Below, in pieces: positions 8,973-57,831 of a stretch of DNA of 64,000 nucleotides (the stretch's first letter is position 1; each line of letters begins with the position of its first letter). The translations under genes and the position numbers were made by a program. Location: the NCBI GenBank assembly GCA_007693605.1, contig REDG01000024.1, forward strand, positions 77,013-141,012. The letters run 5' to 3'. Source of the stretch: Bradymonadales bacterium (lineage in GTDB: Bacteria; Bdellovibrionota; UBA2394). The notes below the pieces were generated by a model that was given only the letters and a program-made list of their open reading frames with translations, made no database searches and had not been told where the DNA came from.

Positions 8973-8976
8973 TCTT

Positions 8977-41245: not shown

Positions 41246-42513
41246 GCATCTCCCAAATCAAGATTTGAGTTTAATGATCGATAATAGGCTCTAGCCGCTG
41301 GAAACACTCCCCCCAACCCACTGGCCACAAGAATGACCAGACTCAACCGCAGATCAGCAAGGCCTCCGAACTCGAAATTCAGCATTAGGCCGTATTGTCC
41401 CTCGGCCAAATGAACCCAGACAGGCCAAAGAAAAAGTAACAAGGCGTTGGCGACCAACAAACCCCCGACGCCAATCATGAGAGCCTCTGAAAGCACTAGG
41501 CCAAAAATGAAGCCTGGAGGCGCTCCCAACAGTCTCAAAACTGCAAACTCTCTCAATCGAAAGTCCAAAGACACCCACAAGAGAGTCAATGGGCTGACAA
41601 AGCAAAGCACCAGAACCAGCGCCAACACAAATGAAAATATTTGTTCAACCCACTCCATGACTTGCCACAGCTCTCGAAACACTTGGCCCGGCAGAATCGC
41701 GGTCAAAGCCTCCGCTTCGTAGTCATAGAACTCTCGCTGAAGAGACAGAATTCTTGCTCGATGCGTCTCCCTTAAGCCCACAAAAACAGCAGTGATGTAG
41801 TCTGGAGTCAATCGGTCCGGCACCGAAACCTCGGCCTCAAAAGGGGGGGCGCCGTCTTCCCAACCCAAATGGATCAGCTCCATAGCCTCAAGACTAATGA
41901 ATAAGGCTTGGTCCCACGGACTTCGAGTCTCTTCCAGAATCCCCACCACCTGAAACTGATGGTCGTCGTGCTCAAAAAATGAGTCCCCGCCTACTCCGTG
42001 TTGCAATATCACAGCGTCTCCAAGCTTGTAGCCCAATCGCTCTGCAACTCTGGCCCCCAAAACAACTCCGGTCTCATCTTGAAAAGTTTGACCCTCGCGA
42101 AAAGCAAAAGTCTGAGCTCTCCCGAAGCGAACGAACTCAAAAAACTCCCTCTTTGTCGCAACAGCTCTGTAGCCAAGATGTGAATCCCCAAGAGATATCG
42201 GGACTGCCCAGTTCACACTCGAATGAGAGGCGATTGCCTCGAAAGTTTTGTAACTCATCAGCGCAGTTGGGCTTCCCAGCCCAAAAACAGTATAAAGTAA
42301 AAGTTGAAGTGGACCCGACCGCCCCCCCACAATCAAGTCGGTGCCAGAGATGCTCCGCTGAAAACTCTCCTCTGCAGACTTTTGTGTGCGATCAAGTACG
42401 AGATAGCTGAAAGCGCTCAGTCCTAGGCAAAGGACGATCAGCAGAACGAGCGACCTACGGCTCCACAAGCTTCTAAATCCGAGCTGCCAAGCCTTCAAGT
42501 TCCAACCTTCCAA
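41242..42513 (-). CDS. ABC transporter permease (FtsX/MacB type)
   Basis: DLIVGGRSGPLQLLLY.VF, PISLGDSH.GYR, REFA.LR.LGA. Confidence 0.9.
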   Translation of the reverse strand: MEGWNLKAWQLGFRSLWSRRSLVLLIVLCLGLSAFSYLVLDRTQKSAEESFQRSISGTDLIVGGRSGPLQLLLYTVFGLGSPTALMSYKTFEAIASHSSVNWAVPISLGDSHLGYRAVATKREFFEFVRFGRAQTFAFREGQTFQDETGVVLGARVAERLGYKLGDAVILQHGVGGDSFFEHDDHQFQVVGILEETRSPWDQALFISLEAMELIHLGWEDGAPPFEAEVSVPDRLTPDYITAVFVGLRETHRARILSLQREFYDYEAEALTAILPGQVFRELWQVMEWVEQIFSFVLALVLVLCFVSPLTLLWVSLDFRLREFAVLRLLGAPPGFIFGLVLSEALMIGVGGLLVANALLLFLWPVWVHLAEGQYGLMLNFEFGGLADLRLSLVILVASGLGGVFPAARAYYRSLNSNLDLGDA

Positions 42514-43163
42514 TCTGATATCTCAATCTCTCGATCAAAATTGAATTCGAGATTCTGATGGCTCACCCAAATCAACGAGCGCCCGTCTTCACGCAGAAAC
42601 TCCTCTAAGACTCGGGTGAAAATCCCAGCATTCTCTTCGTCGAGTGAAGATGTGGGTTCATCCGCCAAAATCAAGGGGGCGCCCGAAGCCAGAGCGCGAA
42701 TCGCCGCCACTCTTTGCTGCTCCCCCTTGCTCAATTCGAATGGAAATCGTTTTGAAATCTCTTGGCTAAGCTGAAAGCTTTCAAAAAGCCTCAGCAGATC
42801 CTTGTCCTCTGTTCTCTGAGTCGACCAGTTTCTCACAAGTCTTATGTTCTGCAAAACCGATAGATAATTGATTAAGTTAAAGGATTGAAAGATGAAACTC
42901 ACGGATTTCGCTCGGAACTGATCTCTCTGAGAGCCTGAAAGCTTCTTCAAGTTCTCTCCGAACAACAGGAGGTCTCCCTCACTTGGCAACAGAACCCCAC
43001 TGATGAGTTTCAAAAAACTAGTCTTTCCGGCCCCACTCTTGCCGCGAAGCAGAATTTTCTCTCCCGCCCGCATCTCAAAGTGCGGAATATGAAGAAGGCA
43101 GGTCTTAGAATCCCAAAGGAACCTAAGGTCTCTACAGCTCAAGATAATCTCTGAGGACGACAC
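42495..43163 (-). CDS. ABC transporter ATP-binding protein
   Basis: GKSGAGKT, FQSFNL, LSKGEQQR, LADEPTS.LD. Confidence 0.9.
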   Translation of the reverse strand: MSSSEIILSCRDLRFLWDSKTCLLHIPHFEMRAGEKILLRGKSGAGKTSFLKLISGVLLPSEGDLLLFGENLKKLSGSQRDQFRAKSVSFIFQSFNLINYLSVLQNIRLVRNWSTQRTEDKDLLRLFESFQLSQEISKRFPFELSKGEQQRVAAIRALASGAPLILADEPTSSLDEENAGIFTRVLEEFLREDGRSLIWVSHQNLEFNFDREIEISDWKVGT

Positions 43164-43169
43164 CCATAA

Positions 43170-43198
43170 AAATTAACCGGCTTGTTCTGATATGACAA
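43170..43198 (-). promoter_or_regulatory. Sigma70 promoter, probably leaderless
   Basis: TTGTCA-17 nt-TAATTT, 6 nt before GTG 43163. Confidence 0.5.
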
Positions 43199-43232
43199 GT
43201 TGTGTGCTGAAAGTGATGGGGCTAGAGATCGG

Positions 43233-44237
43233 TCATTTGCCCGCAAGCATTCGGATGAAGCTTGTGAGCAAATTCTGATCGTACTCGTCGGAGAGCTTGC
43301 CCTGCATCAATTTAAGAGCCTCAACGGGACTGTGAGCAGACTGATACGGACGATGGGAAGTCATGCTGTCAAAGCAGTCGCAAATGGCCACAACCTTCGC
43401 CAGGGCTAGATAGTCTCCACTAAGCCTATAGGGATAGCCCGTTCCATTGGGCCTTTCATGGTGCATCAGAATAATCTTTTCCGCAAGTTCTGGCAGGGTG
43501 CTTGCCTTTCGGACAAGTTCATAGCCATACATCGGATGCTTCTCGACCTCTCGCCTCTCATCGTCGGTGAGTGCCCCTCGCTTATTTAAAATCTTCCGAT
43601 CAATCTTGGCTTTTCCGATGTCATGCAGAATCGAACCGATCCCAATGGATGAGAGTTCGTCATATGTCTTTAACCCAATCTCCCTCGCGAGAGTAATGGA
43701 GTAAGCCGAAGTGTGAATGGCGTGGGTGTACTCAGAAAAATCGGCAGTTGCCATTTTCATCAGCTCAAAGAAATTCTCTTTCTTGGTTAGGTAATCAATG
43801 GATGTCTCTACAATCTTAACCGAACGCTTCACACTCACGGAAGACTCCGGATTCTTGTAGATCGCCTCTAGAATGGTGGCCGAGGCTTCGTAAAGAATCT
43901 TCGACTTCTCTTTATTGCTGATTCTCGGCTCATTGATGATTCGAGTAAGATTGGACTCCAGAAATTGATGATGTTCCTGCTCGTTCTTGCACTGGATGAA
44001 GAGATGCTTGACACCAAAACCCTCAAGCTTCGTGACATCTTCTTTTTTCCAATAAAAGTTCTTGGGCCGAAATAAGAGGTACTGGCCTTGATAATACAGA
44101 AAGAGGTCGGCATCGATTTTTTCGCCGGGTTGATAGAGGTTGGAAGGGACTTGGTAGTACTCTAAGCCCAACTCTCCAACCGAATTGGATCTGACCTTCG
44201 CAGACGGCTCCACAGTTAAAATACTACCATCGTTCAA
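43233..44237 (-). CDS. HD-GYP domain protein (cyclic dinucleotide phosphodiesterase)
   Basis: LHDIGK, HHERPNGTGYP, D.FDSMTS.RPY; start codon uncertain. Confidence 0.9.
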   Translation of the reverse strand: MNDGSILTVEPSAKVRSNSVGELGLEYYQVPSNLYQPGEKIDADLFLYYQGQYLLFRPKNFYWKKEDVTKLEGFGVKHLFIQCKNEQEHHQFLESNLTRIINEPRISNKEKSKILYEASATILEAIYKNPESSVSVKRSVKIVETSIDYLTKKENFFELMKMATADFSEYTHAIHTSAYSITLAREIGLKTYDELSSIGIGSILHDIGKAKIDRKILNKRGALTDDERREVEKHPMYGYELVRKASTLPELAEKIILMHHERPNGTGYPYRLSGDYLALAKVVAICDCFDSMTSHRPYQSAHSPVEALKLMQGKLSDEYDQNLLTSFIRMLAGK

Positions 44238-44303
44238 TAAGGTCGGTGCAGGGCCCCGATTATTTCTTTAAATCTTGAATAAAAGCTGGAACTAAAGTTA
44301 CCC

Positions 44304-44331
44304 ACAGGGAGGGGATCTCTCCCCTCCCTGT
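44304..44331. terminator. Perfect 12-bp GC-rich hairpin
   Basis: ACAGGGAGGGGA-TCTC-TCCCCTCCCTGT; only a weak U tract. Confidence 0.55.
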
Positions 44332-44451
44332 TTCAAATGGGCGGCAGCTCCCGAGTGCTTGAGCCCCAGACTTTTCTAGGATCTGGAGCGCCCTATCACA
44401 CTCGAAGGCTGCCTGTGACTATAACTATTCATCACGGGCATCACCTCCTTT
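44304..44451 (-). ncRNA. Candidate structured small RNA / mini-ORF unit with an extended Shine-Dalgarno
   Basis: AAAGGAGGTGAT (44440-44451), 19-codon ORF 44376-44435, long hairpin 44343-44413, then the 12-bp hairpin. Confidence 0.4.
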
Positions 44452-44521
44452 CAGGCCTTAAAAGGCAGACTTCATCATAAAGGGAGTCCTAAAAAAGGTC
44501 AAAGCCGGCTTAACTTCAGCT

Positions 44522-47500
44522 CTACTTTTGCTCTTTTCCGTAGAGCCGACGCAAGCCATGCACCAGAGATTCATGAGCTTGGCTCAATTCAACAAAACCA
44601 ATCTTCTCAGAATGCCGCTCACTGAGCTCTTTGAAAGCTTCTGAAAGTTGGGTCATTCCTCCTGAGAGCCCCGCCCCCTGGGGATCGATATGAGCATAGC
44701 CGTAATGCTCCACCCGTTCGGCCAGGGCGCTGATCCACTGGAGGAAGTCTGGGTTCACCCCCTCACCGCCGTCTGAAAAGTGAAGAATGAAGCGATTCCA
44801 TTGTTTTCGAGGATGTTTCTCAAAAGACTGCTCAACAAGCTCCAAGGCGGCACGAGAACTCGTCCCACCGCCCAGGCTCCTTGTGAAAAATTCCTTTCTG
44901 TCTACTTCTTGAGCGTCGGTATCGTAGATATAGAATCTTTCTTCTAGATAGGGGTACAAAGTCCTTAGAACGGCAGAAACATAGGCAACCATTTGTCGTT
45001 CAATCGCTCGATGTTCTGCAGACATACTTCCAGAGGTGTCTGCCACATAAAAGATGACGGCATCAAAGTCGGGCTTCTGCTCCATTCGGCGATTAGAAAC
45101 AACGAAATCTTCGGGCTCTGCATACATCATCCCAATCTCCAAAAGCTCGTCATCCGTTTTTTCTGTGTGGTCTTTACCTTGGGCCTGAAGCGTCATCATT
45201 CCTCGAATCACAAGAGCTTCTGCGGTCTCCATATCTTTCCGCGTCCCATCCATTTGACGGAGCCTTCCCCGTCTTCTCTTGACCTCCGTCGGATTTCGAC
45301 CGTCCACCTTTCTCTGGAGATTTCGAAGCTGAATACCCTCAGCAATGATCTTACCAAAAAGCTCAATGGGTATATCAACGGCTCCTTCGCCTGACGCTGT
45401 TCCCCCTGGGGCAGTTTGGTCGGGATCTCCAGAATCGGATTCTCCCTCTTTTTCCTCCCCTTCAGAACCCTGTTCAGTCCCCTCCCCTTCTCCCTCAGAG
45501 CCCTGGCCAGAACCCTCATTTTCCGGAATGGGAAATAGATCTCCGGGTCGATAATGCCCGCTTCCAATATTGAGATCGAGATCTAGCAAATCAGATGGCA
45601 CTAGGCCCTCCACTGGCCGACCCAATGCTGGAAGCACTCCTTCTTGCATCGTCTCAACAGGAGTTCTCTTCATGGTCTGCAATCGAAAGCGCCGAATCTT
45701 TTGATCCAAGCGAAACTGAGGAAGCTCCGGAGTCACTTGAACTCTGACTTTCTTTCCTCCCGCCAAGGTTTTTACCGGCCACTTTCCTTCTGCCACCAAT
45801 CTAAAAATCTCAGCAGAGCGATTTCTGACAAAGTCTTGATATCGCATAACGCTCGAGGCCGCTGTGGTCGCTGCCCGTGAACTCTCGAAAACCTCAACCG
45901 CTGGGGGATGATTCAGCTCCATAGCCTGTGACACCAACTGATTAAAGCGTTCAGAGTTCTCTGACTTCGAATTGCCAATGGATAGATCAAACAGATAGCT
46001 GTTTAGACTCTCCTGTCCCCATGCCTCCAATCGCTCTCTAAAGGCTTCTTCCTCAGTTTCAATTCGAACTTCTCCTGTGGGATCAACAATCACAGCCATT
46101 TCAAACAAATCTCGAGTGCCCTTAATCGGATTTTTTACATCGACCGAGCCAAACCACATGCTCGACCCAAAACCTTCGAATCGAACAGGCCTTCCAAAGT
46201 ATTCTTTAGATAGCAGATAGGCCATTTTCACGATCGACTCTAGGGTAAGTGGAGTGAGCTGTGTCATTTCATGTCGAAGAACAACGAGGCCTGTCTTTTT
46301 GTCTTTAAAGTCTTTCAGATAGACCTGTGGAAAATGATGATCTAGATCGGCCACCGCCTTCGCGATTCGTCTGACGATTCTTTTCGGGTCTCTACTAATC
46401 GCAATATTGGCTTTTTCTCCGTAACCAATCGGATCGACACCATGCTTTGCCTCTCGGTAGAGAAAAAGGTTGTGTTTTTCAACCCAGGCAGCGTCTAAAG
46501 CCATCTGAACAAAGCTGTAGTCATTGAACCTGGAAATGATGTTTTCCGTCGCCCACTCGATGAATTGTAGGTCTTGCTCTATCTGAGACAATCCGGACAG
46601 ATCATTCGCCTCAAAGAATCGATCTCTCACACGAAGCCAAGCCTGAAGCCCTAGCCAATAGGGATTGGATAAATCTTGACGAGTGACGGTCGCATTGAGT
46701 GCCGCGAAGTCCATGATGTTCTGGTCGGTAAAATAGGGCGTATGTGAAAGAACCACAAACTGCATCAAGACGGCGAAACCTTCGTTCATGATTTTCGTAT
46801 TCACAATGCCAGGCCCTACCCGATGAACTCTCTCAAAATGTCGAATGATCTCCCTTCGATAAGACTCTGTCTCCTCCGGAAGGTTCTGCGCCAGAAACTG
46901 CAGAATGGCTTTGGTCTCTGTTCTCGGGAATCGATGACTCGGCCTCGAAGGAGCCTCTTCTTGAAAGCCGAGTGGGCCCTCTGTTGCTTTTGCACGAGGT
47001 CGTTCATCTCTTTCGACCATCTTGAAGGACTCTGGAGGCTCAAAGCTAGCTCGGGCATAGTCTTGAAGCCCTGTCAGACTGTAGAGAGTTTGGTAGAACC
47101 ATGAAACGGCCTCGAAACCATAGTTTTCATAGGCTCGAGAGACGGCGGTAGAGAGGGCCTCAGAGTCTCGAATCCGATCTCCATCCCTTGAAAGTAAGTA
47201 GGGGCTAGAATTCGAAAAATGCAGATGCCCTGCCACATGCGCGTAGACGAGAAGGGTTTCAGAAAACCGATTGGTGTCTCTGACAATCTGTACATCACTG
47301 TCTTGCCCCTTTTCAACGAACTCCAGTATTCCCCCAGCCCTTGCCGCATTGCTTTCAACATCTCTTCCCCCAATCCAATGAACAACCGGCTGACCAAAAC
47401 TGGAAGTCAGAGCGGCCATATCGCTTCCATTGACGGACTGAATCACCATATCAGGAATTCTTAAGCCCAACTTTAGGGCGATATCTTGATAGATCAATTT

Positions 47501-47677
47501 GGCAGCTTTCTCGTATTCTGAAGCAAGACTTGAATCTCTATCGGATGTCCAGACTCGGATCTTTGGAATGGTAAGCTTGCCAACAGCATCGGCACACTTC
47601 CAATGTGCTTCTGCTCTTCCTGCGCACAAAGCAAAACAAAGGATCGCTACTGTGAACGCCCAAGTTCGTTGATCCAT
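44522..47677 (-). CDS. Signal-peptide SpoVR/YcgB-YeaH (DUF444, vWA) fusion protein
   Basis: SpoVR motifs YAHVAGHLHF, TKIMNEGFA, NPYWLG; YeaH motifs Gly/Glu-rich linker, AVIFYVADTSGSM (MIDAS), FF....GGGT, HFSDG; N-terminus MDQRT-WAFTVAILCFALC-AGRAEA. Confidence 0.85.
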   Translation of the reverse strand: MDQRTWAFTVAILCFALCAGRAEAHWKCADAVGKLTIPKIRVWTSDRDSSLASEYEKAAKLIYQDIALKLGLRIPDMVIQSVNGSDMAALTSSFGQPVVHWIGGRDVESNAARAGGILEFVEKGQDSDVQIVRDTNRFSETLLVYAHVAGHLHFSNSSPYLLSRDGDRIRDSEALSTAVSRAYENYGFEAVSWFYQTLYSLTGLQDYARASFEPPESFKMVERDERPRAKATEGPLGFQEEAPSRPSHRFPRTETKAILQFLAQNLPEETESYRREIIRHFERVHRVGPGIVNTKIMNEGFAVLMQFVVLSHTPYFTDQNIMDFAALNATVTRQDLSNPYWLGLQAWLRVRDRFFEANDLSGLSQIEQDLQFIEWATENIISRFNDYSFVQMALDAAWVEKHNLFLYREAKHGVDPIGYGEKANIAISRDPKRIVRRIAKAVADLDHHFPQVYLKDFKDKKTGLVVLRHEMTQLTPLTLESIVKMAYLLSKEYFGRPVRFEGFGSSMWFGSVDVKNPIKGTRDLFEMAVIVDPTGEVRIETEEEAFRERLEAWGQESLNSYLFDLSIGNSKSENSERFNQLVSQAMELNHPPAVEVFESSRAATTAASSVMRYQDFVRNRSAEIFRLVAEGKWPVKTLAGGKKVRVQVTPELPQFRLDQKIRRFRLQTMKRTPVETMQEGVLPALGRPVEGLVPSDLLDLDLNIGSGHYRPGDLFPIPENEGSGQGSEGEGEGTEQGSEGEEKEGESDSGDPDQTAPGGTASGEGAVDIPIELFGKIIAEGIQLRNLQRKVDGRNPTEVKRRRGRLRQMDGTRKDMETAEALVIRGMMTLQAQGKDHTEKTDDELLEIGMMYAEPEDFVVSNRRMEQKPDFDAVIFYVADTSGSMSAEHRAIERQMVAYVSAVLRTLYPYLEERFYIYDTDAQEVDRKEFFTRSLGGGTSSRAALELVEQSFEKHPRKQWNRFILHFSDGGEGVNPDFLQWISALAERVEHYGYAHIDPQGAGLSGGMTQLSEAFKELSERHSEKIGFVELSQAHESLVHGLRRLYGKEQK

Positions 47678-50600
47678 CGATCACACTTCCCTTCAAAGCC
47701 TTTGATTCTCTCTTCTGAACTCGCGGGGGCATCAGCCCTAAGTATCGAGATCATTCCTAAAATCAGACTCAAGTCGACCGAGCTTAAAATCGAATCTTTC
47801 GCATCAAACACAAAGCTCTGAACGAGAGGCGATTGGGCCACCGACATATCTCTCGTGATACTATCCAAAATTTTGATACTAAATCCCGTGATGCGCGACC
47901 AATTGAGCCGAGAAACTGAACGGTCGAGCGCGATGAAAAATACTCGAAACAAATCATAGTAGTTGAAATCAGAAACCGCTCCCGCCTCCCGGCTTCGCAC
48001 ACTTAAGAAGGTATCAAGAAAGTTCTTGAGGCTGGCCAAGACGGCCTGCCCGACTTCCTTTGGTAAATTTGTCTGCTCCTTTTGGTTCTGTAGCCAGTCT
48101 TCAATCGAGGGTCTCGTCTGTAAATCCTTAAGCCGCAGATAAAAAGCTGCCAAGCCTTCGAGAAGGGCCTCCAGTTCCGCAACCTTGTCCCCAAGTACAA
48201 TCGACACCTCACTCGGTTGATTCTCGGAATCTCCCCCTCCGAAGAGGTCTAGGTCGACACTCGATCCGTAGTGCAATTCTGGCAGTGAATGATAGTTCTC
48301 TCGACTTCTCTGCCTCGTCACAACGGCATCATATGCCCGTTTAAACTCCTGAACTGAAAACTCATCAGTCACTCCAAACTCGCTAGGCTGAAATCTGATC
48401 TCCTCTAGACTCAGTTCCTGATAGAGATTCAGATGGTCCTCTAAAGCATTGGCGAGGGCTCCAACGATTTGAAGGTTTTTTGCCTTTTGCGACATGAGGT
48501 CGATGTCCGATCGAACGGCGTCTAGAAAGACCTCAAACAACTTGAGCCTCAGATTGTTCATGAGATAGAGACTAAACTCGATTTGACCCGCACTGTTGGT
48601 GCCAACGGGGAGTGCTTGAAAGTGCTCTTGGACAAAGCGCGTGATCACTGAGCCCTCGTCGCCGCCTGAAACCGCATGAGAGCCCGTAGTGGATCGATTT
48701 GAAATCCGCTCAGAACTGAAACGCGGTCGAATCAAAAAGAGCTTCGTCTCATTCCCTCTCGAGAGTCCCATCAAGGAACTTGCTGCGGAAGACAGAAAGG
48801 TTCGTGCATCAACCTCTGGCGTATTCTTAATAATGGAGGACAATACACTGGGGTGCACAAACACGAGTTGATGGTGGTTGTTGAAATGCGTCTGTCGACT
48901 GGGCAAAAGAGCGGCGTTGAGTGCAGGCCCTTTCGATGCAAAAGGAAAGCGATTCAAACTGATCAAATCGCCAAAGCGTCTTAAAAAGGACTCTTCAAGT
49001 GTAAGATCAGGAGTCGAGAGTGAGGCTAAAATCAATTCTGTATCTGTTGGGTGGTGCGGATTCTTGGCAAACTGCCGAAGCTTCTCAGGGTTCGACTTGG
49101 GGTTGAGCGCAATCAGAACACTGAGATTTCTCGTTGGCCGCTCTCGACCTTCAAGATCAACGAAGGTCTTCTCATCTTGTAGAGCTCTAATTCTCTGAAT
49201 GAAATACTCTCGCGCTTCAGGGGGGGCTAAATGAAAGTCATCAAGAAAGATAAGCCCCCTCTCGCCCCCCTCTGCCGTGAGAAAGCTTTCAAAGGCTTTC
49301 TTGGCTTGCTCAAAATTCAACATTCGCTCTGAAGAATTGTTTTCCTTAGAATTCGAAGTCTGCCCAAGGACTTGCGCCATATTCAAAACAAAGGCCAACT
49401 TTGTAGACTGGGGAGGCTCGCCAGTCATTGAAAATATTTCAAACTCAAGAGCGGATATCAGGGTGCGAATCGCCGTGGTCTTGCTCGTACCCGTCCCCCC
49501 ATAGATGATCGCGGACGACTTGAGATTCCTAACCTGATCGGTAGAGAGTTGAGCTAAAAGCACTTGAATGAGTCTTTGCTTAAACTCAATTGGGCCGGTG
49601 TAACCGTGAGTCTGCCACAGGTGAATAATATCCTTTCTTGAAAGAATTTTGAGATGATCCTCATCGTCTAGAAGATCCAGGTTGACGGGCATAGGAAAGA
49701 CTCTTGCCAGAGACTGTTCAACCAGTCTGAGATCGAGCACTCGTCTCTTGCGAATCCTCTCACTGGTGGTCATCTGAAACAAAAGCTCACTTAGAACCTT
49801 CAAGAAACTCTCAAAAACAGGCATTCCATTGTCGAGAGCCAACTTCTCTGACCGATTAATCAGATAGGTGAGAATTTTATCTTCTAGCTCTTCCACACTA
49901 TAGGATTTCTTCTCAAAGTCCGCCACCAGGCCTTCGAGACTGACCTGAAACTGACTCATGCGGACACCGGGGTGAAGCAGTAGATTCTTTCTCGCGAATT
50001 CCAACCTGAGCTCTGAGGTGGGGGGACTGAGTTTGACGACTTCAAAGAGATCAAAGACACCCATCTCATTCTCGATCGGGTGCGCTTCACGAAGCTTTTC
50101 CCAACTCTCTTCTGTTCCAATCAAGAGGGTTGATATGGGAGAGTTCGAGTCTGCAACAAAGTCAGCGGCGTCGACCCGCTGCCCCCCTGTTGCTAAGAAA
50201 TACAAAATTGAGGGCGCCTGACTGAGCCTCTCTGGTTGGCGTTCTAGATCTTCACCGTCTAGCGAAACACTATTGCCAATTGCTCGACTAAGAATGAGGT
50301 CTGATGTTTCGTTCTGAGTCTTTTCCTGACGGGTCGATACGCGAGCAATCTTATCGATCGATTCGAGCAAGACCGGCGCTTTCTGATGGGTCCGAGACTC
50401 AGAAATCATATGTCTGATATTCTCGAGAACCTCCCTTTGAGAGATCGGCTCCTCGATCTTGGGCAGCGCATAGAGCTGATACCTCCCGCTACTTTTGTGC
50501 CAAGGGCCTCCGTGAGCAGCATCTCGATGTCGATAAGCAAATGGATATTGTCCCGCATATCGAAGCAGATCTGGCGAAACAATGAGAACCACCTTTCTTG

Positions 50601-53037
50601 CCTTTGTGCGAATATCTGCCAAATCATTCAGCAAATCTGGATACTCCGGAAAGACATCAGTCTGATATTCAGCGGCATTTCTGGCTCTGCGGCGCTCAGG
50701 ATCAGACTCTACCCAATCGCGAACAAGCCAATTGGAGTAAAAGCGCCCTTGAGACTCAGACAACGCCCCATCGCCCAAAGCAGCGGGTCGCAATCGAAGC
50801 TTTGGGGCGTTCCTTGTTAAGATTTGCTGACCATCGGACAGACGAATCACCCGGAAGTTAGGGTCTATGAGATCTCTTCCCGGATCCTGTGAGAAGTAGA
50901 TCCCCGCATCGGGAGAGACAAAAATTCTGGAAAGAAATTCCTCTTTGGTTAGGGCCCCCTCAATATTGATCAAAGCCTTTGTGCCGTGGATCTCGAAGCG
51001 CGACTGCTCGACATTTCCAGAATTTGACTTAATCCTTATCTCCGACAGTATAAGATATCGAATGCTTGTCTCGATGGCCTCTCCCTCCGACTGGCTAATC
51101 GACAACGCAAGTTTGAGTCCGTCAGAAGCGCTCATTCCCACCGAGGGAAACAGATGAATATCTCGAATATCTTCAAAACTCGAGTCGAGATCAATCTCAA
51201 TTGGGGAGTCAATCATCTTGGCCTCTGAATCAACGAGCAGCAATACAAGACGAGCTTTTGAAGCCGCATCTGGAAGATCGGTCAGATAGAATCCAACGAT
51301 CTGAATCTCTGTTAGGGAGTTCCAACCCGTCTTCACCTTGAGATCAATGGCCAGATTCATTTCGTTTCGAATAAGGCTGGGTAGATATCCAAGCGCGGAG
51401 TCAACAGAGTCATCACTCTTCGTAAAGTAGACTCCTGTTGGGTTGGGGCCCTCCGGTGGTCGTTCAAATTCAAAAAAACTGACTCCATCTGAAAGTGAAA
51501 CTTCTCTAAGGGGTTCCAAGAAGTGATAGCTCAATCGGCCAGTCTCAAAAGTTGTCAAGACATCAACAGTCGCTGCGGTCTTCCGAAATTTTCTTTGAAA
51601 GTCTTCTGAAGAGAGGCCGACCGGCGTTTCAATATCAAAGAGCAATCGCTCTCCCGCAGCGATGATCATTCTCCTGGCCAAATCTTCTTGGGGAAAGAAT
51701 TTGGGGCTTAGGTGTTGGACTCGGTGAATCTGAGATCGCCCCTCTAGATCTGAGATTTCATAAGCAACGGTCTCTGCATCTCCGGATTCAAACTGCCAAG
51801 AAACCACCAGAACTTTGGCTTCAGCAGAGTAAGCAGCACTAAGGTCTACTAGATCGGTCGCTGCTGGTCGAATCGGCTCAATCTCAATGCTCTGCTGGCG
51901 AGACCTCTGTACATAGGTGAACAAAACCCTCTCATCCCTCAAAACAACCAGACCTAAGCCGCTGCGAGCAGAACTGGCTACACGGCGAAAGGCCAGTTGA
52001 GGATGAGGCGCCGAAGTGGAGATCACATAGGGACTCGTCTCATCCAAAACATTTTCTTTACCTGCAAGCCACTGCACTCCTCGGGCAGCATCGTAGTAGG
52101 CATAGATGGGAGGACCATCTGAGCCGAGACCCACCCTCAAGGGGTGTCTCACCTCGATACGATCATGGGGAATGGATATGAGAGGCAAATAGGGATAGAT
52201 CCTCCAAAACTCTTGTAGATCTGAAAGTTGATCTCCCGATTTCAGCGCCAATCGAAAAAACTCGCTCGGACTCAATCGCTCCATTAAGTCACGAAGGCTC
52301 TGCTTCCACTCAACCACAAAATCTGCCTCGTTACCTCTCTCTTGAACAGCCATCTGTAAGAGATTTCTGGAAACAAGAGCCGAGTAATTATCATGAAAAA
52401 ACATGCGGCCGAATAGCTCTGAATGATCTGAAAACTCATAGTCTAAAAGCACTGGATCTCGGATGGGCCTGATTTTTCCAGACTCGAAACTCTCTTTGTT
52501 AAAAATAACGGCAAATGTAAGACCAGAACCATGAATTGAGTTTTTGGTCTTCATGGAAACGAGAACAACATAATGAGGCTCAGCTCCCATCTTAATATCA
52601 GTCCCCTCAATTGAGACATCTTCAATGTCCTCAATCATCGGTAGGGGGATCTTCTGGCCAAGTATCGGGTCTCGTATTTGATCGATCTCAAAAATACTTT
52701 GAGGATCCTCGTCTCTCGATCGGGTGGAGAAAAAGGTGAGTCGTCCATCCAAGATACAAAGACTTTGGAAGTCATTCGCAACCCTGGGGAACTCGATGAC
52801 ATGCGAAAGTCCTCCGGTCACAGATTCTAAAAGAACCTCCCCCTCTAGAGCTAGGCGCCACGACCTTCCGTCTCGAATATAAATTCCTGGACTTCGACTA
52901 GATGTTCCCATTTCATCCGGCACAGCGATCAGGTAGGGAGTCCCTGCCTGAAAGGGCGGCTCCTCTTCTCTGGTCTGAGCTGTTGACTCAAACCCGATCA
53001 GGCCAAAGAGAAGAGCTGCAAGATGCGCTCTTATCAT
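47647..53037 (-). CDS. Giant signal-peptide protein with a beta-rich N-half and Clp-like AAA+ module(s)
   Basis: IIYGGTGTSKTT (variant Walker A), LIFLDDFH (Walker B), IALN sensor, SFLRRF Arg finger; an upstream degenerate NBD-like segment (LLIGTEESW...FEVVKLSPPT); N-terminus MIRAH-LAALLFGLIGF-ESTA. Confidence 0.7.
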   Translation of the reverse strand: MIRAHLAALLFGLIGFESTAQTREEEPPFQAGTPYLIAVPDEMGTSSRSPGIYIRDGRSWRLALEGEVLLESVTGGLSHVIEFPRVANDFQSLCILDGRLTFFSTRSRDEDPQSIFEIDQIRDPILGQKIPLPMIEDIEDVSIEGTDIKMGAEPHYVVLVSMKTKNSIHGSGLTFAVIFNKESFESGKIRPIRDPVLLDYEFSDHSELFGRMFFHDNYSALVSRNLLQMAVQERGNEADFVVEWKQSLRDLMERLSPSEFFRLALKSGDQLSDLQEFWRIYPYLPLISIPHDRIEVRHPLRVGLGSDGPPIYAYYDAARGVQWLAGKENVLDETSPYVISTSAPHPQLAFRRVASSARSGLGLVVLRDERVLFTYVQRSRQQSIEIEPIRPAATDLVDLSAAYSAEAKVLVVSWQFESGDAETVAYEISDLEGRSQIHRVQHLSPKFFPQEDLARRMIIAAGERLLFDIETPVGLSSEDFQRKFRKTAATVDVLTTFETGRLSYHFLEPLREVSLSDGVSFFEFERPPEGPNPTGVYFTKSDDSVDSALGYLPSLIRNEMNLAIDLKVKTGWNSLTEIQIVGFYLTDLPDAASKARLVLLLVDSEAKMIDSPIEIDLDSSFEDIRDIHLFPSVGMSASDGLKLALSISQSEGEAIETSIRYLILSEIRIKSNSGNVEQSRFEIHGTKALINIEGALTKEEFLSRIFVSPDAGIYFSQDPGRDLIDPNFRVIRLSDGQQILTRNAPKLRLRPAALGDGALSESQGRFYSNWLVRDWVESDPERRRARNAAEYQTDVFPEYPDLLNDLADIRTKARKVVLIVSPDLLRYAGQYPFAYRHRDAAHGGPWHKSSGRYQLYALPKIEEPISQREVLENIRHMISESRTHQKAPVLLESIDKIARVSTRQEKTQNETSDLILSRAIGNSVSLDGEDLERQPERLSQAPSILYFLATGGQRVDAADFVADSNSPISTLLIGTEESWEKLREAHPIENEMGVFDLFEVVKLSPPTSELRLEFARKNLLLHPGVRMSQFQVSLEGLVADFEKKSYSVEELEDKILTYLINRSEKLALDNGMPVFESFLKVLSELLFQMTTSERIRKRRVLDLRLVEQSLARVFPMPVNLDLLDDEDHLKILSRKDIIHLWQTHGYTGPIEFKQRLIQVLLAQLSTDQVRNLKSSAIIYGGTGTSKTTAIRTLISALEFEIFSMTGEPPQSTKLAFVLNMAQVLGQTSNSKENNSSERMLNFEQAKKAFESFLTAEGGERGLIFLDDFHLAPPEAREYFIQRIRALQDEKTFVDLEGRERPTRNLSVLIALNPKSNPEKLRQFAKNPHHPTDTELILASLSTPDLTLEESFLRRFGDLISLNRFPFASKGPALNAALLPSRQTHFNNHHQLVFVHPSVLSSIIKNTPEVDARTFLSSAASSLMGLSRGNETKLFLIRPRFSSERISNRSTTGSHAVSGGDEGSVITRFVQEHFQALPVGTNSAGQIEFSLYLMNNLRLKLFEVFLDAVRSDIDLMSQKAKNLQIVGALANALEDHLNLYQELSLEEIRFQPSEFGVTDEFSVQEFKRAYDAVVTRQRSRENYHSLPELHYGSSVDLDLFGGGDSENQPSEVSIVLGDKVAELEALLEGLAAFYLRLKDLQTRPSIEDWLQNQKEQTNLPKEVGQAVLASLKNFLDTFLSVRSREAGAVSDFNYYDLFRVFFIALDRSVSRLNWSRITGFSIKILDSITRDMSVAQSPLVQSFVFDAKDSILSSVDLSLILGMISILRADAPASSEERIKGFEGKCDRWINELGRSQ

Positions 53038-53040
53038 TCT

Positions 53041-55491
53041 TTATCTCCCCGGCTGCTTTTGACTTCGTAGCGCCATTGATCTCTGAATCGCCTCAATGGC
53101 GATTCTTGCGGACTGAGGATTGTATCCGAAGTCTTGACTCAAGGTGTTTAACAGACCGTCTGCCCGCATCTGAAGATCTGGATCTTTGACCCTGCCAGTT
53201 CCCGTCGCCGCCGAAAGCAAAGAGCTCAAACTCGCATTCTCTCGAGCCAACTGTAAGTGAACATAATACTGTGTGATCGCAGCAAGAAATTCCGGATGAA
53301 TTGCAGAATCATCGGTAGAGGAATTAACACTCCATGTAAACCAAGTTCCAACCTCCTGAAAATCAAACGCACGGCCTGTAAGCTCTTGCCAAGCCCTCTT
53401 GACTCCGTCCAGTCTTTCAAAATTAATCGGAGTCTCTGCGCCCGTCGAAGGATGAAGATAATGAGTCGCCTTGGCATCACCCGATAAGGCCGTCATCTCG
53501 GCGATCATTTCATCGTAAACGAGCGAAACAAATTCCTCACCCATCTGCCTCATATAGGCCTCACTCAGATCCCTCTCGTACTTTGGAATAATCCATCGTT
53601 GATGAATCTCTTCAGCAAGAAGAATGAGATGTCTTTGATCTTCTGGCTTAAGCCCTCGATATCGATCATCGTAAACCAAGTCCCGAATCACTTGAATGAT
53701 GAGTTCCGGAGTAAGAGTGTTGTGATAGGTCGAACTGGCTGCCAACGAGAGGGCTGCCGTCCACATTCGAGCGGCAACCCGATGGTCTAAACCAAAAGTC
53801 CCCTCATCCCCTAGTCGCGACAAAGCCATCAAGTTGTGCATTCTAGCTCTTTCAATCTGAGTCTCTCCGAAATAGACTTTCAGACGGCTGATTCGATCCA
53901 CCAAGTGGATATCAGAGTCCTTCACCATCGGAAATTGCTGAGCGAGACGAATATCATTCAGATTGAACTGCATTCGAGACAGAGACATGATTGCAGCCAT
54001 GAACTCCAAACTATGCGGCCCGATCTCAATAGGAGAGTGCTCAGGGTTTCCATAAGCCAACGCGAATCTTCGGTGTGTTGTAGCAGGCCTCTTTCCAAAT
54101 TCTCTGCTTGGAACGAGCCGGAAAACAGACTTGCCCCTCACTTCGACCCAGTCTGCCCCAGACTCTCCCAATGGCCGCATCCAAAGCGGATTCGTTTCCA
54201 TCGCCAGAAGCTGCATATTAGAAATCGGATCGATCAGAGAATTCATAGGGATAGGCAGAATTCTGCTGAGCAGAGGAGAGTTGGGATCTCTTTCCTCTAG
54301 CTCTTTTAGCTCCCTCGTATTCGTGGCTCCAAGGAATAGAATGTCAATCGGTACCGTGACCCCCGCCGCAATATCAACTCGATGACTAGAGACCAAATTC
54401 AATAGTTTTGCAAAGAAAGCCGGATGATTCTTTAAGAGCTCATCGAAGTAGATCACGCCGCCATTGGCAAGCGGAATGATTCCATAGTCCCAGGCAAAGG
54501 GATCATTGATGCCCGCCCTCATCGCATGAATCGCATTGGGTCGGCCAAAGATTTCCGAATCTCTTGGCTCGTCGCCTTGTTGTGCAATCAGGGGAAGCGT
54601 GGTGGAATCACCTAGAATCAGCCTCTTGATCCGAATATGTTTTGAAAGAACGCTTACAATTTCTTCATCACTAAGAGTCTCGCCCTTTTCCGCTTCGTAG
54701 TGGGCAATGATTTCTGCTCGAATTGCAGCTGACTTTGGATTCGGCTGCCGTTTGGGGTTAGGATCTTGATGAAGTTCAATATAAACTCTTGATCGATGTT
54801 CTGCAAGAATGGCCTCCTGATACGAGTCCGGAAGAAGACTAAATGGAGAGTCGTTGATTGGATCTGCAAATGCTCTTGGGCTTTCCGCCTTCACAAACTC
54901 TGACGGAAGTCGATTTTTTAAACTGGGAATTTTGGACAGATCGACCCACTCAAAAGTGTAGGCAAAGTGCTTTGGAACTCTCATCGTCGCGTTCGACATA
55001 GATGTTCTCAGATGCTCAAGAATAAAGGACTTTCCACTGCCGGGTACGCCGACCAACATGGGCATATCTCTGCCGGAAGCGCCTCCCGAGGCTGCGGCCT
55101 TGATTGCTTCGACTAGCTGAGCGGCCGCCTGCTCTTGACCCACTAAAAATTTACCATCCGCTAGATCGTGAGCAGTGGAGAGTAGATTGTAGACCTTATG
55201 CTTCCGGCTACCCGTAAAGGGATCGACTTTCTCTTCGACGCCAGCGGAAAGAAACAAATGGAGTAGCGTTTGTGGGCTCGACATGATGGTCCATGGGTGA
55301 TTGGCAATGAAGCTCTCGGGACCAGCCTCAAGAAGAACCTCAAGGTCATGTCGCTCCTTATCAGCGACTCGACGATAATCGATGGAGTCCCCCCGGATGA
55401 CGATGTTTTCAACACTGACCCGACACTTATCCGATGCATCAACTCCTGCGATCAAACCGGCTAATACAAAAAAATAGGCAAAATTTTTCAC
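53041..55491 (-). CDS. Signal-peptide PrkA/YeaG-family AAA+ ATPase
   Basis: LVGVPGSGKS, DPFAWDYG...ANGG..YFDELLK, GATN, L.SRI, IGPHSLE.MA....LSR, EG.FG, GYN..SA; probable start GTG 55491 after a purine-rich RBS (ORF track 55518); MKN-FAYFFVLAGLIAG-VDA. Confidence 0.85.
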   Translation of the reverse strand: MKNFAYFFVLAGLIAGVDASDKCRVSVENIVIRGDSIDYRRVADKERHDLEVLLEAGPESFIANHPWTIMSSPQTLLHLFLSAGVEEKVDPFTGSRKHKVYNLLSTAHDLADGKFLVGQEQAAAQLVEAIKAAASGGASGRDMPMLVGVPGSGKSFILEHLRTSMSNATMRVPKHFAYTFEWVDLSKIPSLKNRLPSEFVKAESPRAFADPINDSPFSLLPDSYQEAILAEHRSRVYIELHQDPNPKRQPNPKSAAIRAEIIAHYEAEKGETLSDEEIVSVLSKHIRIKRLILGDSTTLPLIAQQGDEPRDSEIFGRPNAIHAMRAGINDPFAWDYGIIPLANGGVIYFDELLKNHPAFFAKLLNLVSSHRVDIAAGVTVPIDILFLGATNTRELKELEERDPNSPLLSRILPIPMNSLIDPISNMQLLAMETNPLWMRPLGESGADWVEVRGKSVFRLVPSREFGKRPATTHRRFALAYGNPEHSPIEIGPHSLEFMAAIMSLSRMQFNLNDIRLAQQFPMVKDSDIHLVDRISRLKVYFGETQIERARMHNLMALSRLGDEGTFGLDHRVAARMWTAALSLAASSTYHNTLTPELIIQVIRDLVYDDRYRGLKPEDQRHLILLAEEIHQRWIIPKYERDLSEAYMRQMGEEFVSLVYDEMIAEMTALSGDAKATHYLHPSTGAETPINFERLDGVKRAWQELTGRAFDFQEVGTWFTWSVNSSTDDSAIHPEFLAAITQYYVHLQLARENASLSSLLSAATGTGRVKDPDLQMRADGLLNTLSQDFGYNPQSARIAIEAIQRSMALRSQKQPGR

Positions 55492-55788
55492 CAATCCCTC
55501 TCCCCTCACTAGTTGCACCTATAAGATTTAGTGAAGCTCGCTGTAATGCGTCAAGAAGACTTATGCGACGCGATGCGCTAATAAGCTCGTGGTACTGAAA
55601 AAAATGCAGACTAGATTAAATTGCAGGCCTCCCCTCAGAATCAGAACCAAGCTCTCAAATCTGAATCTCTAATTTCAGAGGCAACTTTTTTTACTCGAAC
55701 TATCTCGACCATTTGAGACTCTTTACGACTGCCCAGCGAAGATCGAACGAAGGATAATGACATCATGCGTTACGATACTCTGCGGCCT

Positions 55789-57831
55789 ATGCACAAAACA
55801 TCCCAAAGAGGCTTTGCTCTAGGGATTGTCATCATGACGATCGTCTTGAGTCTCTCTCTGGCTCTCGTTTACTTGAATCGTTCTCACCTTCAACTTTCTA
55901 TCTCTGGCATCCACTCTGACAGTGTGATTGCAAACTTTCAAATGGAAGCCGCCTATGAAGAGGCAAGAAACTTTCTAGAGATCGCCGTTGAAGACATCCG
56001 AATGGATGGGGCCTTCCAGCTACACCCCTCCACTCCTAGTACCGACTCAATTTCAAACCTGAATGCTGTTTACGGAGGATCTCCAGCCGCCGCATTGAAC
56101 TTTCTTCGACATGCGGTCGAATCCCAGTCGATTGATACATCTGGAGTCATGGATCCAACTCACCCCCATTTTGATTTTGATACGGCCTTCAGTTCAGATT
56201 GGACCCCTTTCAATACTCAAGATGCCATCATGGAGAGGCGCTACTCCTTTGAAGCCAGAGCGCCTATTGTTGAAACTTTTGGTGGAAATCCAAGCATCTT
56301 TTTTCAATATGATTACACCCTAGAAGTTCGTGCTTACGGAACAAGCCATTTCTCTCAAGCCGCTTCTCAAGAAAAGGGGGTGATCTCCATTCTTCTCTCA
56401 CGAGCACCCTTCTCTCGGTTTGCTCTGTTTCGATCACAGAACCGAAACCAAGACGGCAATATTTTGGTCTTTGCGGGGGGAGACACCTCGGCCCAAATTC
56501 AGGAGGTCTTCTCGGGCCCTGTTCACCTGAATCAATCGCCTATCTTTTACGGGGCGCCTGTCTTTTTGGATGTCTTCACCTCTGGTGCTGCTCAATCGAG
56601 CTGGCAACAGATGTCCGTCTCTGGATACTCAGGAACCGCCGTCTTTCACAATCAAGCGCTGGGAGATCAAGAGACCATGGAGCTCCCAACGGAGGTGAAC
56701 AATGTGATTCGACTTGCGGTCGGAGATTCCTCACCAAATGCCGCCTTTGACAACACTCCTCTGAGCAGCGGAGAACTGGTCAACTTTCTTAGAGAGACTC
56801 CCGGCTACACTCTGCCAGGAAGCGCAATAAGCATCCCGCCAGGTGTTCACATTCCAGTGAGTGACCAAACTAACCTGGTGCCGAAGGGGGGCGTCTATAT
56901 TGAAGGGGACAGCAATGTAAGACTGAATGTCGTTCAGGGTGAAAGTGACTTTGCTCCTGAGCGCTGGGCTCAGATTTCTTCGAGCGACCAAGCCTGCAAG
57001 TTTCAGAAGATGCTGATTGAACACCATGATGATGTGAGTCTCAGTCGCGAAATTTACATTGCGGATGAACCCTGTAACTCAACTTATGTTTTCACTCCCG
57101 ACCCCACCGCATTGCCCCATGTGTTGGCGGGACGAATCAACGGCAATGTTCACGCCAATGGAAAAATCGATCAGCTCGGGGGCGAGTCTCGGACCAGACC
57201 CGCGATCGCCACAGACTTTGGCTTTACGGTCTCCGCAAAAAAAGAAGTTCGAATTGTGAATGACATACAGTACGAAGACTCCTTTTATCACTCGATGGAT
57301 TCTGATGGAAATGTCAGCTACGCTCCCGTCGCAACTCCTTGGGGTGACATCGACGGATCGGGCATCCATCCAACCGATCAAAATGTACTCCCAAAGATTA
57401 ACTCTGAATCTAAGACGGTCTTGGGGATCCTCTCGACTCACAAAAATGTACTTTTGCATATCGATGCCCCCGCGAACTTAAATCTTCATGCCGCCATCTT
57501 TGCAGGAAATCCGAATCACTACGACTCAAGCACTGACCTTGGCTGTGGAGCAAACCACGCCAATCAGAGGGGCTGCGGCTTTGGAAACGAAGGTTGGAAC
57601 ACCAATACCGGCATGGGAAGCTTCAAGTTCTTGGGCAGCATTTCTGAATATCGCTCGCAATCGATGGGTAGAACTTCAAACCCTCCAACGGGCTATCAGC
57701 GCCGCCTCGCTTACGATCAACGCTTTCTAGAGGATCTTGTGCCGCCCGCCTATCCCCTCTCAGAGAGCCTTCAAGCTTTTTCTCGTGTGGAAAGATTTCG
57801 AGCCTGGCGGCTGGTTCAGGCAGAAGATTGA
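55789..57831 (+). CDS. PilX-like N-terminal prepilin protein with a large beta-rich (DUF4900-like) domain
   Basis: MHKTSQRG|FALGIVIMTIVLSLSLAL type III signal without Glu5; FSRFALF, F.GPVH.N, YDQRF....PPAYP. Confidence 0.7.
   Translation: MHKTSQRGFALGIVIMTIVLSLSLALVYLNRSHLQLSISGIHSDSVIANFQMEAAYEEARNFLEIAVEDIRMDGAFQLHPSTPSTDSISNLNAVYGGSPAAALNFLRHAVESQSIDTSGVMDPTHPHFDFDTAFSSDWTPFNTQDAIMERRYSFEARAPIVETFGGNPSIFFQYDYTLEVRAYGTSHFSQAASQEKGVISILLSRAPFSRFALFRSQNRNQDGNILVFAGGDTSAQIQEVFSGPVHLNQSPIFYGAPVFLDVFTSGAAQSSWQQMSVSGYSGTAVFHNQALGDQETMELPTEVNNVIRLAVGDSSPNAAFDNTPLSSGELVNFLRETPGYTLPGSAISIPPGVHIPVSDQTNLVPKGGVYIEGDSNVRLNVVQGESDFAPERWAQISSSDQACKFQKMLIEHHDDVSLSREIYIADEPCNSTYVFTPDPTALPHVLAGRINGNVHANGKIDQLGGESRTRPAIATDFGFTVSAKKEVRIVNDIQYEDSFYHSMDSDGNVSYAPVATPWGDIDGSGIHPTDQNVLPKINSESKTVLGILSTHKNVLLHIDAPANLNLHAAIFAGNPNHYDSSTDLGCGANHANQRGCGFGNEGWNTNTGMGSFKFLGSISEYRSQSMGRTSNPPTGYQRRLAYDQRFLEDLVPPAYPLSESLQAFSRVERFRAWRLVQAED

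Follow-up and report, generated by a model that had tools for sequence, protein, structure and literature searches.

Signal-like N-termini on a second, divergent PrkA–YeaH–SpoVR set with a giant AAA+ protein in Bdellovibrionota

The stretch of DNA analysed here (the window) comprises 64,000 nt of contig REDG01000024.1 from assembly GCA_007693605.1, and coordinates are those of the window unless another source is named. On its minus strand, at positions 44522-55518, three coupled open reading frames (ORFs) form a compact cassette of ~11 kb that encodes a PrkA/YeaG-like AAA+ protein, a giant protein with one recognizable AAA+ module, and a fusion of SpoVR-like and YeaH-like parts. On balance, and by a modest margin, the evidence leans towards a cassette that is a second, divergent copy of the PrkA–YeaH–SpoVR set, joined by the giant, and that is exported to serve as a likely ATP-dependent remodelling or degradation machine outside the cytoplasm. 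Export is predicted because all three proteins carry Sec-type, signal-like N-termini, and it is well supported by comparison, if unproven.

Signal-like N-termini of the three proteins

A signal-peptide pattern at all three N-termini had been claimed in a preliminary description of this DNA. The sequences are indeed as described, with predicted cleavage contexts of LIAGVDA-SDKC (PrkA-like), GFESTA-QTREE (giant) and CAGRAEA-HWKC (fusion), and the pattern recurs at related loci. Its frequency was estimated with a strict, home-made rule for the n-, h- and c-regions of a signal peptide (the n-h-c rule), a crude measure that stands in for a trained signal-peptide predictor. The rule demands a net positive n-region, an uncharged run of at least 10 residues, a 9-residue core with a hydropathy of at least 1.9, small residues at positions -3 and -1 and a length of 14-42, and it accepts any start codon within the first 40 codons. 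When calibrated on this genome, it was passed by 399 of 1633 non-overlapping ORFs of at least 150 amino acids (aa) (24%) and by 68 of 1938 internal segments (3.5%). Same-genome duplicates (loci L022-L025, replaced by L034, L035, L037 and L038), near-identical sister copies (L029 and L033), contig-cut ORFs and the downstream halves of split genes were dropped from the count of family N-termini, and the near-identical L052 and L053 were both retained. Fifty-four of the 66 complete N-termini pass the rule (PrkA-like 19/21, giants 16/20, fusions 19/25). Judged from these sequences, the pattern is far beyond chance, since every related locus shows it in all three proteins.

The hydrophobic N-terminal segment itself is found in 65 of the 66, the sole exception being the giant of L042. 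This exception is explained by a frameshift, since MAKSKLISYQICIQIFFTVYSIVNSKVFA, with the conserved PY motif behind it, is encoded in the upstream frame. The two pieces of this split giant occupy L042:3671-4282 and 4264-9918, the N-terminal piece bearing the signal. A giant or fusion that is split in two frames or ORFs, through frameshift or assembly error, also occurs at L041, L049 and L056.

The signal segments diverge among homologues, and alignable sequence begins directly behind them: the giants have xREE...PYL there, and the PrkA-like and fusion proteins an invariant Cys within ~10 residues. Two ways in which the preliminary description might have failed can thereby be addressed. True starts downstream of the hydrophobic segments are excluded by the conserved mature N-termini that lie immediately after them, and homologues without the N-terminal extension were not encountered, given the segment's presence in 65 of 66 proteins. 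A similar picture comes from an independent set of 124 full-length metagenome representatives of the PrkA-like protein: 83 pass the strict rule, and in 108 a hydrophobic 12-mer lies within the first 110 residues. Several of the remaining representatives look N-terminally truncated by gene calling. No later segment in the three window proteins resembles a membrane span, the two highest internal hydropathy windows being an AAA beta-strand and a helix of a C-terminal domain, both of which contain Asp. As for other signal types, no RR motif of the twin-arginine (Tat) kind was seen by eye in the three window N-termini, and the invariant Cys of the PrkA-like and fusion proteins is preceded by charged residues (SDKC, HWKC) and not by a lipobox.

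Cysteine content provides a further comparison. Among this genome's soluble ORFs of at least 300 aa, the median cysteine content past residue 60 is 0.29% for signal-like ORFs (n=165) and 1.04% for the others (n=560; Mann-Whitney p 5e-26). Past residue 45, the PrkA-like protein has no Cys in 780 residues, the giant two in 1751 and the fusion none in 1006, and this depletion matches the genome's signal-bearing class, not its cytoplasmic class. Likewise, 79 of the 124 PrkA-like metagenome representatives have no Cys past residue 110. Each window protein has one invariant Cys, namely C32 (PrkA-like), C28 (fusion) and C1785 (giant, near the C-terminus), and one idea would be that these form intermolecular disulfides.

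Another protein of similar composition was observed elsewhere in this genome (G000). An ORF of 824 aa on contig C8 (C8:13603-16077, or L057:604-3078) combines a classic AAA domain (PF00004, E 2e-21, residues 490-630) with an N-terminus that resembles a signal or an anchor; Cys is absent past residue 60, and the product may be a second extracytoplasmic AAA protein of the genome. The next gene (C8:16128-27209) encodes a 3693-aa protein with a lipoprotein-like signal (LLA then CSS).

The canonical operon in the same genome

The preliminary description had proposed a search of the genome for a normal, signal-less set, and one exists. On contig C30 of the assembly (2.19 Mb, 79 contigs, 90% complete) lies a canonical prkA–yhbH–spoVR operon, whose genes score 291, 208 and 456 bits, respectively, in Pfam. 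Its proteins have hydrophilic N-termini (best 12-residue hydropathy 0.41-1.04), and none of the three passes the n-h-c rule. A weak PrkA match on contig C5, considered as a further PrkA copy, proved to be an ordinary Lon protease.

The cassette and the canonical PrkA/YeaG–YeaH/YhbH–YcgB/SpoVR operon comprise the same three domain families in co-operonic arrangement. Moreover, the cassette's PrkA-like protein keeps AAA+ and C-domain motifs in common with the genome's canonical PrkA (including G573, G576 and R580 of the C-domain), and its fusion keeps the H..GH and NEG motifs of SpoVR and the metal ion-dependent adhesion site (MIDAS) of YeaH. Unlike the canonical operon, however, the cassette has signal-like N-termini on all three proteins, an inserted gene for a 1796-aa protein, and SpoVR and YeaH parts that are fused and in reverse order, the canonical yeaH preceding spoVR. 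Similarity to the canonical proteins is very low, such that no NCBIfam equivalog level is reached and Pfam PrkA scores lie at the cut-off. When the same pairs of genomes are compared, the cassette's PrkA-like proteins are 25-37% identical whereas the canonical PrkA proteins are 68-86% identical, and such apparently fast evolution fits outward-facing proteins without proving it. In Bdellovibrio bacteriovorus, the canonical operon bd0228-bd0231 is listed among conserved attack-phase core genes in the accessible text of PMC5430801.

Domains and ATPase motifs

The claim that a PrkA, SpoVR and YeaH set is accompanied by an added giant AAA+ protein finds support in Pfam matches together with profile and structure matches. 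The PrkA-like protein scores 29.6 bits against AAA_PrkA PF08298 (cut-off 25), with residues 124-179 alone aligned, and the same model in a whole-genome search gave the cassette locus 18.3 bits, under the cut-off. The PrkA C-domain PF06798 scores 25.4 bits (cut-off 25) over residues 544-808, covering profile positions 2-253 of 255, and a search of NCBIfam gave no family at E 0.01 or better. A profile built from nine homologues, in turn, matches the solved structure 9xip ('Serine protein kinase') at E 6.3e-32. By these sequence measures, the protein stands at the edge of the PrkA/YeaG family.

Intact Walker motifs had been attributed to the ATPases of the cassette. This holds for the PrkA-like protein (GVPGSGKS for Walker A and IYFDE for Walker B) but was slightly generous for the giant (GGTGTSKT, IFLDD). 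Among nine aligned PrkA-like homologues, the Walker A pattern GxxGxGK[ST] fits eight, the other having GTAKT, and Walker B reads D-E in seven, E-E in one and D-D in one. In an alignment of 21 sequences that includes canonical PrkA, G160, K163, the sensor-1 N400 and the Arg finger R419 are invariant, and D359-E360 of Walker B is conserved at 90% or more. The Walker A pattern also occurs in 118 of the 124 full-length metagenome representatives. In the giants, an alignment of 18 sequences shows G80, K86, T87, D166, D167, N204, N212, R254 and R312 to be invariant in all 18 (alignment numbering), a set that includes the Walker A Lys and Thr, the D-D of Walker B, two Asn and two Arg. From their conserved residues, both cassette ATPases look functional.

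The fusion has Pfam matches to SpoVR (PF04293, 86.2 bits, cut-off 27, residues 64-412) and DUF444 (PF04285, 88.9 bits, cut-off 27, residues 829-1047). NCBIfam models for YhbH/YeaH and SpoVR were also seen, far under their equivalog cut-offs (98 vs 388 for YeaH/YhbH). SpoVR comes first and YeaH second in one ORF, and the two are fused in all 10 aligned homologues, across which H147, G150, H151 and N298-E299-G300 are invariant. The vWA MIDAS motif is conserved as well (D880-x-S882-G883-S884, G937-G938-T939 and D969). Sequence searches of the PDB with the fusion returned chance-level matches alone (E >0.002), and a word-indexed search returned only 11 close relatives, the named ones being called 'SpoVR family protein' or YeaH/YhbH–SpoVR. 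Because the two PrkA/YeaG partners are joined in a 'Rosetta-stone' fusion, they can be argued to act together as one unit. A complex prediction for PrkA-like residues 120-825 with fusion residues 760-1051 scored 0.00 and, run with no controls, is evidence neither way.

In several fusion homologues, His-rich stretches (SHRHIHSHDHSS, GDHKHTDTDHVH and HAHDECHKH) lie past the predicted cleavage site and before the invariant Cys; the corresponding mature N-terminal region of the window's fusion is at 47520-47605. Such N-termini hint at metal binding.

The giant yields weak, generic AAA Pfam matches at residues 1161-1288, below cut-offs; no Clp family was matched in the Pfam scan, and neither NCBIfam nor a sequence search of the PDB returned any match. 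The ESM Atlas placed it with generic AAA clusters at 0.86-0.87. A model of its C-terminal half (residues 1101-1796, from 18 sequences) reached a predicted local distance difference test (pLDDT) score of 82.5 and a predicted template modelling (pTM) score of 0.79, and the first 380 residues of this model match Clp/Hsp100 modules of the D2 type. Foldseek returned ClpA, ClpC, ClpB NBD2 and ClpX (E 9e-8 to 3e-6, target TM <=0.58), and VIA-align ranked ClpA at the top (Z 14.9, root-mean-square deviation 5.5, 285 aligned), followed by CLPB/Skd3 and ClpB NBD2 (13.4 each) and by general AAA+ proteins from Z 12.5 down. The last ~300 residues, which are helical, were unmatched in the structure searches. 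The model of the N-terminal half is poorer (pLDDT 73, pTM 0.39), being beta-rich to residue ~720 and then alpha/beta, and Foldseek matches to DDB1/Utp multi-propeller proteins (probability >=0.9, though with TM <=0.13) make 'propeller-like' a lead only. A putative degenerate second AAA module was sought at ~790-1000, where the model has a beta-alpha-beta arrangement, but profile-profile comparison of the halves gave a probability of 0.35% and detected no internal repeat of the AAA module.

Several known systems invite comparison. In structure, the giant's AAA+ module comes closest to the modules of class I Clp/Hsp100 and ClpX/HslU unfoldases (ClpA D2, ClpB NBD2, ClpC and ClpX). Unlike Clp/Hsp100 proteins, however, the giant matches no Clp sequence family, has one recognizable AAA+ module with a D-D Walker B and no pore loop of the GYVG type, carries ~1100 beta-rich and alpha/beta residues in front and a 300-residue helical domain behind, and begins with a signal-like N-terminus. 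A second parallel is found in the MoxR-type AAA+/vWA pairs, such as RavA–ViaA, CbbQ–CbbO, NorQ–NorD and BchI–BchD, in which, as in the cassette, an AAA+ ATPase is encoded beside a vWA/MIDAS protein. By analogy, this arrangement suggests ATP-driven remodelling of a target held via the MIDAS, although the cassette differs in pairing a PrkA-type AAA+ protein with DUF444, in its extra SpoVR and Clp-like parts, and in its predicted export. Finally, Torsin in the lumen of the endoplasmic reticulum and PTEX HSP101 in the Plasmodium vacuole are eukaryotic, signal-bearing AAA+ ATPases of non-cytosolic compartments in which the ATP supply is known or assumed. The giant's AAA+ module matches the PTEX core complex at Z 12.5 and TorsinA at Z 12.0, values within the general AAA+ background of the list, and the cassette is unlike these systems in being bacterial and in having no sequence-level relation to them beyond the AAA+ fold. 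Overall, the cassette's parts are drawn from known families, but the giant falls outside any Clp sequence family.

Distribution

As to whether operon and signals are conserved across Bdellovibrionota, surveys at several depths found that they are. Among 60 related genomes, a fused SpoVR–YeaH (open frames of 1032-1197 aa) is present in 10, separate canonical genes are present in nearly all, and the giant occurs in exactly the 10 genomes with the fusion. Of 401 genomes sampled evenly from the phylum, 34 (29 of 204 genera), the window genome among them, contain the C-terminal half of the giant, in a patchy distribution. The giants range from 1764 to 2292 aa and lie between the other two genes in related loci. 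Eleven of 12 fetched loci have the order PrkA-like (800-871 aa), giant (1783-2292 aa), fusion (1030-1193 aa), one of the 11 having its PrkA-like gene cut by a contig end; the twelfth, a short contig, breaks off within the giant.

A scan of contigs from named genomes gave 23 loci, most of which also show the PrkA-like–giant–fusion order. Nearly all bear labels of Bdellovibrionota lineages (Bacteriovoracaceae, Oligoflexia, Bdellovibrionales, Pseudobdellovibrionaceae or Bdellovibrionaceae); a few have less specific ones, for example Deltaproteobacteria or 'uncultured bacterium', and a single fragment is assigned to Myxococcales. Apart from one 'uncultured bacterium' assembly, they are described as metagenome-assembled genomes. 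At L040, L043 and L049, the PrkA-like gene is followed directly by the fusion, without the giant, and both proteins are still signal-like. Searched against 1.84 billion proteins, the PrkA-like profile gave 214 representatives (50% clusters) at E <=1e-30. Two genomes, G032 (L028/L029) and G053 (L032/L033), each carry the complete cassette in two divergent copies, with giants of 2131 and 2292 aa.

Gene layout and neighbourhood

The three genes (Table 1) are tightly coupled, as had been described, and this was borne out on both ORFs and DNA. Genes 1 and 2 are separated by 3 bp, read as TAA-aga-ATG, and genes 2 and 3 share 31 bp (47647..47677). The ATG starts of genes 2 and 3 are preceded by GGGGAGA and GGGAAG, respectively. 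In gene 1, a GA-rich stretch resembling a ribosome-binding site (RBS) lies just 5' of an in-frame TTG-GTG that is 9-10 codons into the listed ORF, probably the true start, from which MKNFAYFFVLAGLIAGVDA would precede SDKC and the N-terminus would still be signal-like.

Table 1. Positions of the cassette genes and their parts in the window
Feature	Position	Strand	Extent and remarks
PrkA/YeaG-like AAA+ protein (gene 1)	53041..55518	-	825 aa counted from first GTG; ORF, Pfam, profile match
Signal-like N-terminus, PrkA-like	55435..55518	-	residues 1-28, ...FFVLAGLIAGVDA then SDKC; invariant Cys32
AAA+ core of PrkA-like protein	54229..55149	-	~residues 124-430; GVPGSGKS, IYFDE, ATNT, LLSR
PrkA C-terminal domain	53095..53889	-	residues 544-808; PF06798
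Giant protein (gene 2)	47647..53037	-	1796 aa; ORF; homologues occupy same middle slot
Signal-like N-terminus, giant	52978..53037	-	MIRAHLAALLFGLIGFESTA then QTREE; mature xREE...PYL conserved
Beta-rich N-terminal region of giant	50728..52977	-	~residues 21-770; propeller-like by local structural similarity only
Clp/Hsp100-D2-like AAA+ module of giant	48718..49557	-	~residues 1161-1440; GGTGTSKT, IFLDD
Helical C-terminal region of giant	47650..48600	-	~residues 1480-1796; invariant Cys1785
SpoVR–YeaH (DUF444/vWA) fusion (gene 3)	44522..47677	-	1051 aa; ORF, Pfam, NCBIfam, alignment
Signal-like N-terminus, fusion	47606..47677	-	MDQRTWAFTVAILCFALCAGRAEA then HWKC; invariant Cys28
SpoVR/YcgB-like domain	46244..47488	-	residues 64-478; invariant H147, G150, H151, N298-E299-G300
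YeaH/YhbH-like part	44534..45514	-	residues 722-1048; Gly/Glu-rich tract, then vWA

A promoter and terminator scan of 44100-56000 returned fewer sites than shuffled sequence. Upstream, on the plus strand at 55765-57831, lies a divergent gene for a 688-aa protein with a DUF4900 match (E 4e-8), and the 246-bp intergenic region between it and the PrkA-like gene showed no sigma-70-like promoter in a simple scan. The downstream neighbours (37774-44237) encode an HD/HD_5-domain protein, an ABC ATPase, a MacB/FtsX-type permease, a DUF3299 protein, Ppx and Ppk1. Long ORFs flanking related loci differ from locus to locus (their families were not scanned), and the neighbouring genes are not counted as part of the cassette. 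The only public run listed with DNA of window 45600-55550, possibly the source of the assembly, comes from a soda lake metagenome according to its label. In two metatranscriptomes from that study, window 43000-58000 received 0 reads, the organism itself not being shown in either.

Alternative explanations

If the signal-like N-termini were an artefact of wrong starts or gene calling, the case for export would not arise, and it is true that gene 1 is probably listed from a start too far upstream and that several metagenome gene calls have odd N-termini. Yet conserved sequence starts immediately behind the hydrophobic segment, RBS-like motifs precede the starts, and the one N-terminus of 66 without the pattern is a frameshift, making this explanation scarcely credible and, as far as sequence analysis can show, refuted. 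Uncleaved signal anchors are a more serious, if rather improbable, alternative, in which the proteins would stay attached to the inner membrane, mostly on its periplasmic side, as an envelope-bound machine. Cleavage is itself a prediction, some h-regions are long, with uncharged runs that reach 24 residues, and several members fail the small-residue test at -3/-1. Most members, however, have AxA-like sites directly before the conserved mature N-terminus, and the uncharged run, at a median of 18-19 residues with the c-region included, is short for a membrane span. Anchors of the reverse orientation (N-out, C-in), or segments that are simply unused, would make the cassette a cytoplasmic and perhaps membrane-associated paralogue running on cytoplasmic ATP, and the ATP problem discussed below would disappear. 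The flanking charges of the 66 N-termini are equal in six and reversed in five (11 of 66 together), but the N-flank is more positive in 55, which favours an N-in/C-out topology and argues against the anchors with cytoplasm-facing ATPases contemplated in the preliminary description. Moreover, the cysteine depletion matches the genome's signal-bearing class, no segment of this kind is present in the genome's canonical cytoplasmic paralogues, and three different proteins retain the pattern despite wide sequence divergence, all of which leaves the reverse orientation a distinctly poor prospect.

A number of observations nevertheless weigh against an exported, ATP-dependent machine. Twelve of the 66 family N-termini fail the n-h-c rule, mostly as near-misses, and these include the window's own fusion, which fails solely on its n-region (MDQR, net charge 0); the rule, for its part, also passes some plainly cytoplasmic proteins. 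The homologues all come from uncultured genomes, and relatives are non-independent samples. The periplasm is generally held to lack ATP, so that a conserved hydrolytic site outside the cytoplasm needs an ATP source that is unproven, and the predatory lifestyle that might provide one is assumed from taxonomy labels only. No peptidase domain was recognized in the three proteins with Pfam or NCBIfam. In the giant, Ser replaces the usual Gly before the Walker A Lys in the window copy, Walker B is D-D instead of D-E, and between the two Walker motifs the 18-sequence consensus shows no conserved aromatic motif of a pore loop, the loop at that position being modelled with low confidence, so substrate threading is not supported. 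These irregularities of the giant, together with single PrkA-like members that have GTAKT, E-E or D-D and with the scarcity usually ascribed to ATP outside the cell, could also be read to mean that the proteins are exported and their AAA+ folds are no longer motors, serving instead as scaffolds or binding a nucleotide or phosphate ligand, for example as a sensor of prey ATP. Binding-only proteins, however, usually lose catalytic residues, whereas both ATPases show little or no variation at the Walker A Lys, the Walker B acidic pair, the sensor-1 Asn and the Arg finger. A non-motor role seems fairly unlikely. A precedent for sensing does exist in Pseudomonas, for which the accessible text of PMC12625894 reports a periplasmic domain that senses external ATP.

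Proposed mechanism

If the cassette does act as an exported ATP-dependent machine, its three proteins would pass through Sec, lose their signals by cleavage and form one complex. ATP-driven remodelling would fall to the PrkA-type ATPase and the Clp-like giant, a partner or substrate would be bound at the vWA/MIDAS end of the fusion, and the SpoVR domain, with its invariant His-x3-His and Glu, may add an activity of its own that is possibly metal-dependent. ATP would have to come from outside the producer's cytoplasm, for example from permeabilized prey around or inside which such bacteria live, and it could conceivably enter the producer's periplasm via porins. That bacteria which permeabilize another cell would meet its ATP is the least strained answer to the ATP problem. 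By a further step, we infer that the proteins might be delivered to the prey cytoplasm, there to use prey ATP and act on prey proteins.

The activity could be similar to the proteolysis-linked role that has been reported for canonical PrkA/YeaG. According to PMC9512850, ATP is bound and hydrolysed by B. subtilis PrkA, which also breaks down casein in a reaction that requires ATP and Walker A. In E. coli, YeaG is reported to be needed for a starvation-induced, largely non-specific degradation of cytoplasmic proteins (PMC13684143), in the accessible part of which neither YeaH nor YcgB is mentioned. A title on an ATP transport system in intraperiplasmic Bdellovibrio is cited in the reference list of a review (PMC13689555, accessible part).

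It is tempting to go further and picture a complete machine for protein unfolding and degradation, exported by Bdellovibrio-type bacteria and composed of a PrkA-type ATPase, a Clp-like giant with propeller-like domains for substrate binding and a SpoVR–vWA adaptor, that runs on leaked prey ATP and dismantles folded prey proteins in bulk. This picture is speculative and, on present evidence, unlikely.

Biological significance

The preliminary description knew of no exported version of this module, and the literature searched (supplements lying outside the search) likewise describes no signal-bearing PrkA/SpoVR/YeaH set. In the same literature, the phrases 'periplasmic', 'secreted', 'exported' or 'extracytoplasmic AAA+' are absent and 'periplasmic ATPase' is present, several of its uses concerning mycobacterial ESX/EccB components.

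Bacterial ATP-driven machines, those of the AAA+ class included, are generally assumed to be restricted to the cytoplasm, the periplasm and the outside being without an ATP supply, and none of the present kind is known to act elsewhere. Two AAA+ ATPases with catalytic residues, export signals and a Cys-poor composition would challenge that rule or point to an unrecognized ATP source, for which a permeabilized prey cell is the obvious candidate. The YeaH–SpoVR fusion ties in with the recent YeaG result on bulk proteolysis in starving E. coli, and the cytoplasmic paralogue in the same cell gives a comparison for the cassette. If the bulk dismantling of prey proteins proved true, the cassette would be an extracellular counterpart of YeaG-dependent starvation proteolysis in E. 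coli and, among bacterial AAA+ machines, the first demonstrated to operate beyond the cytoplasmic membrane.

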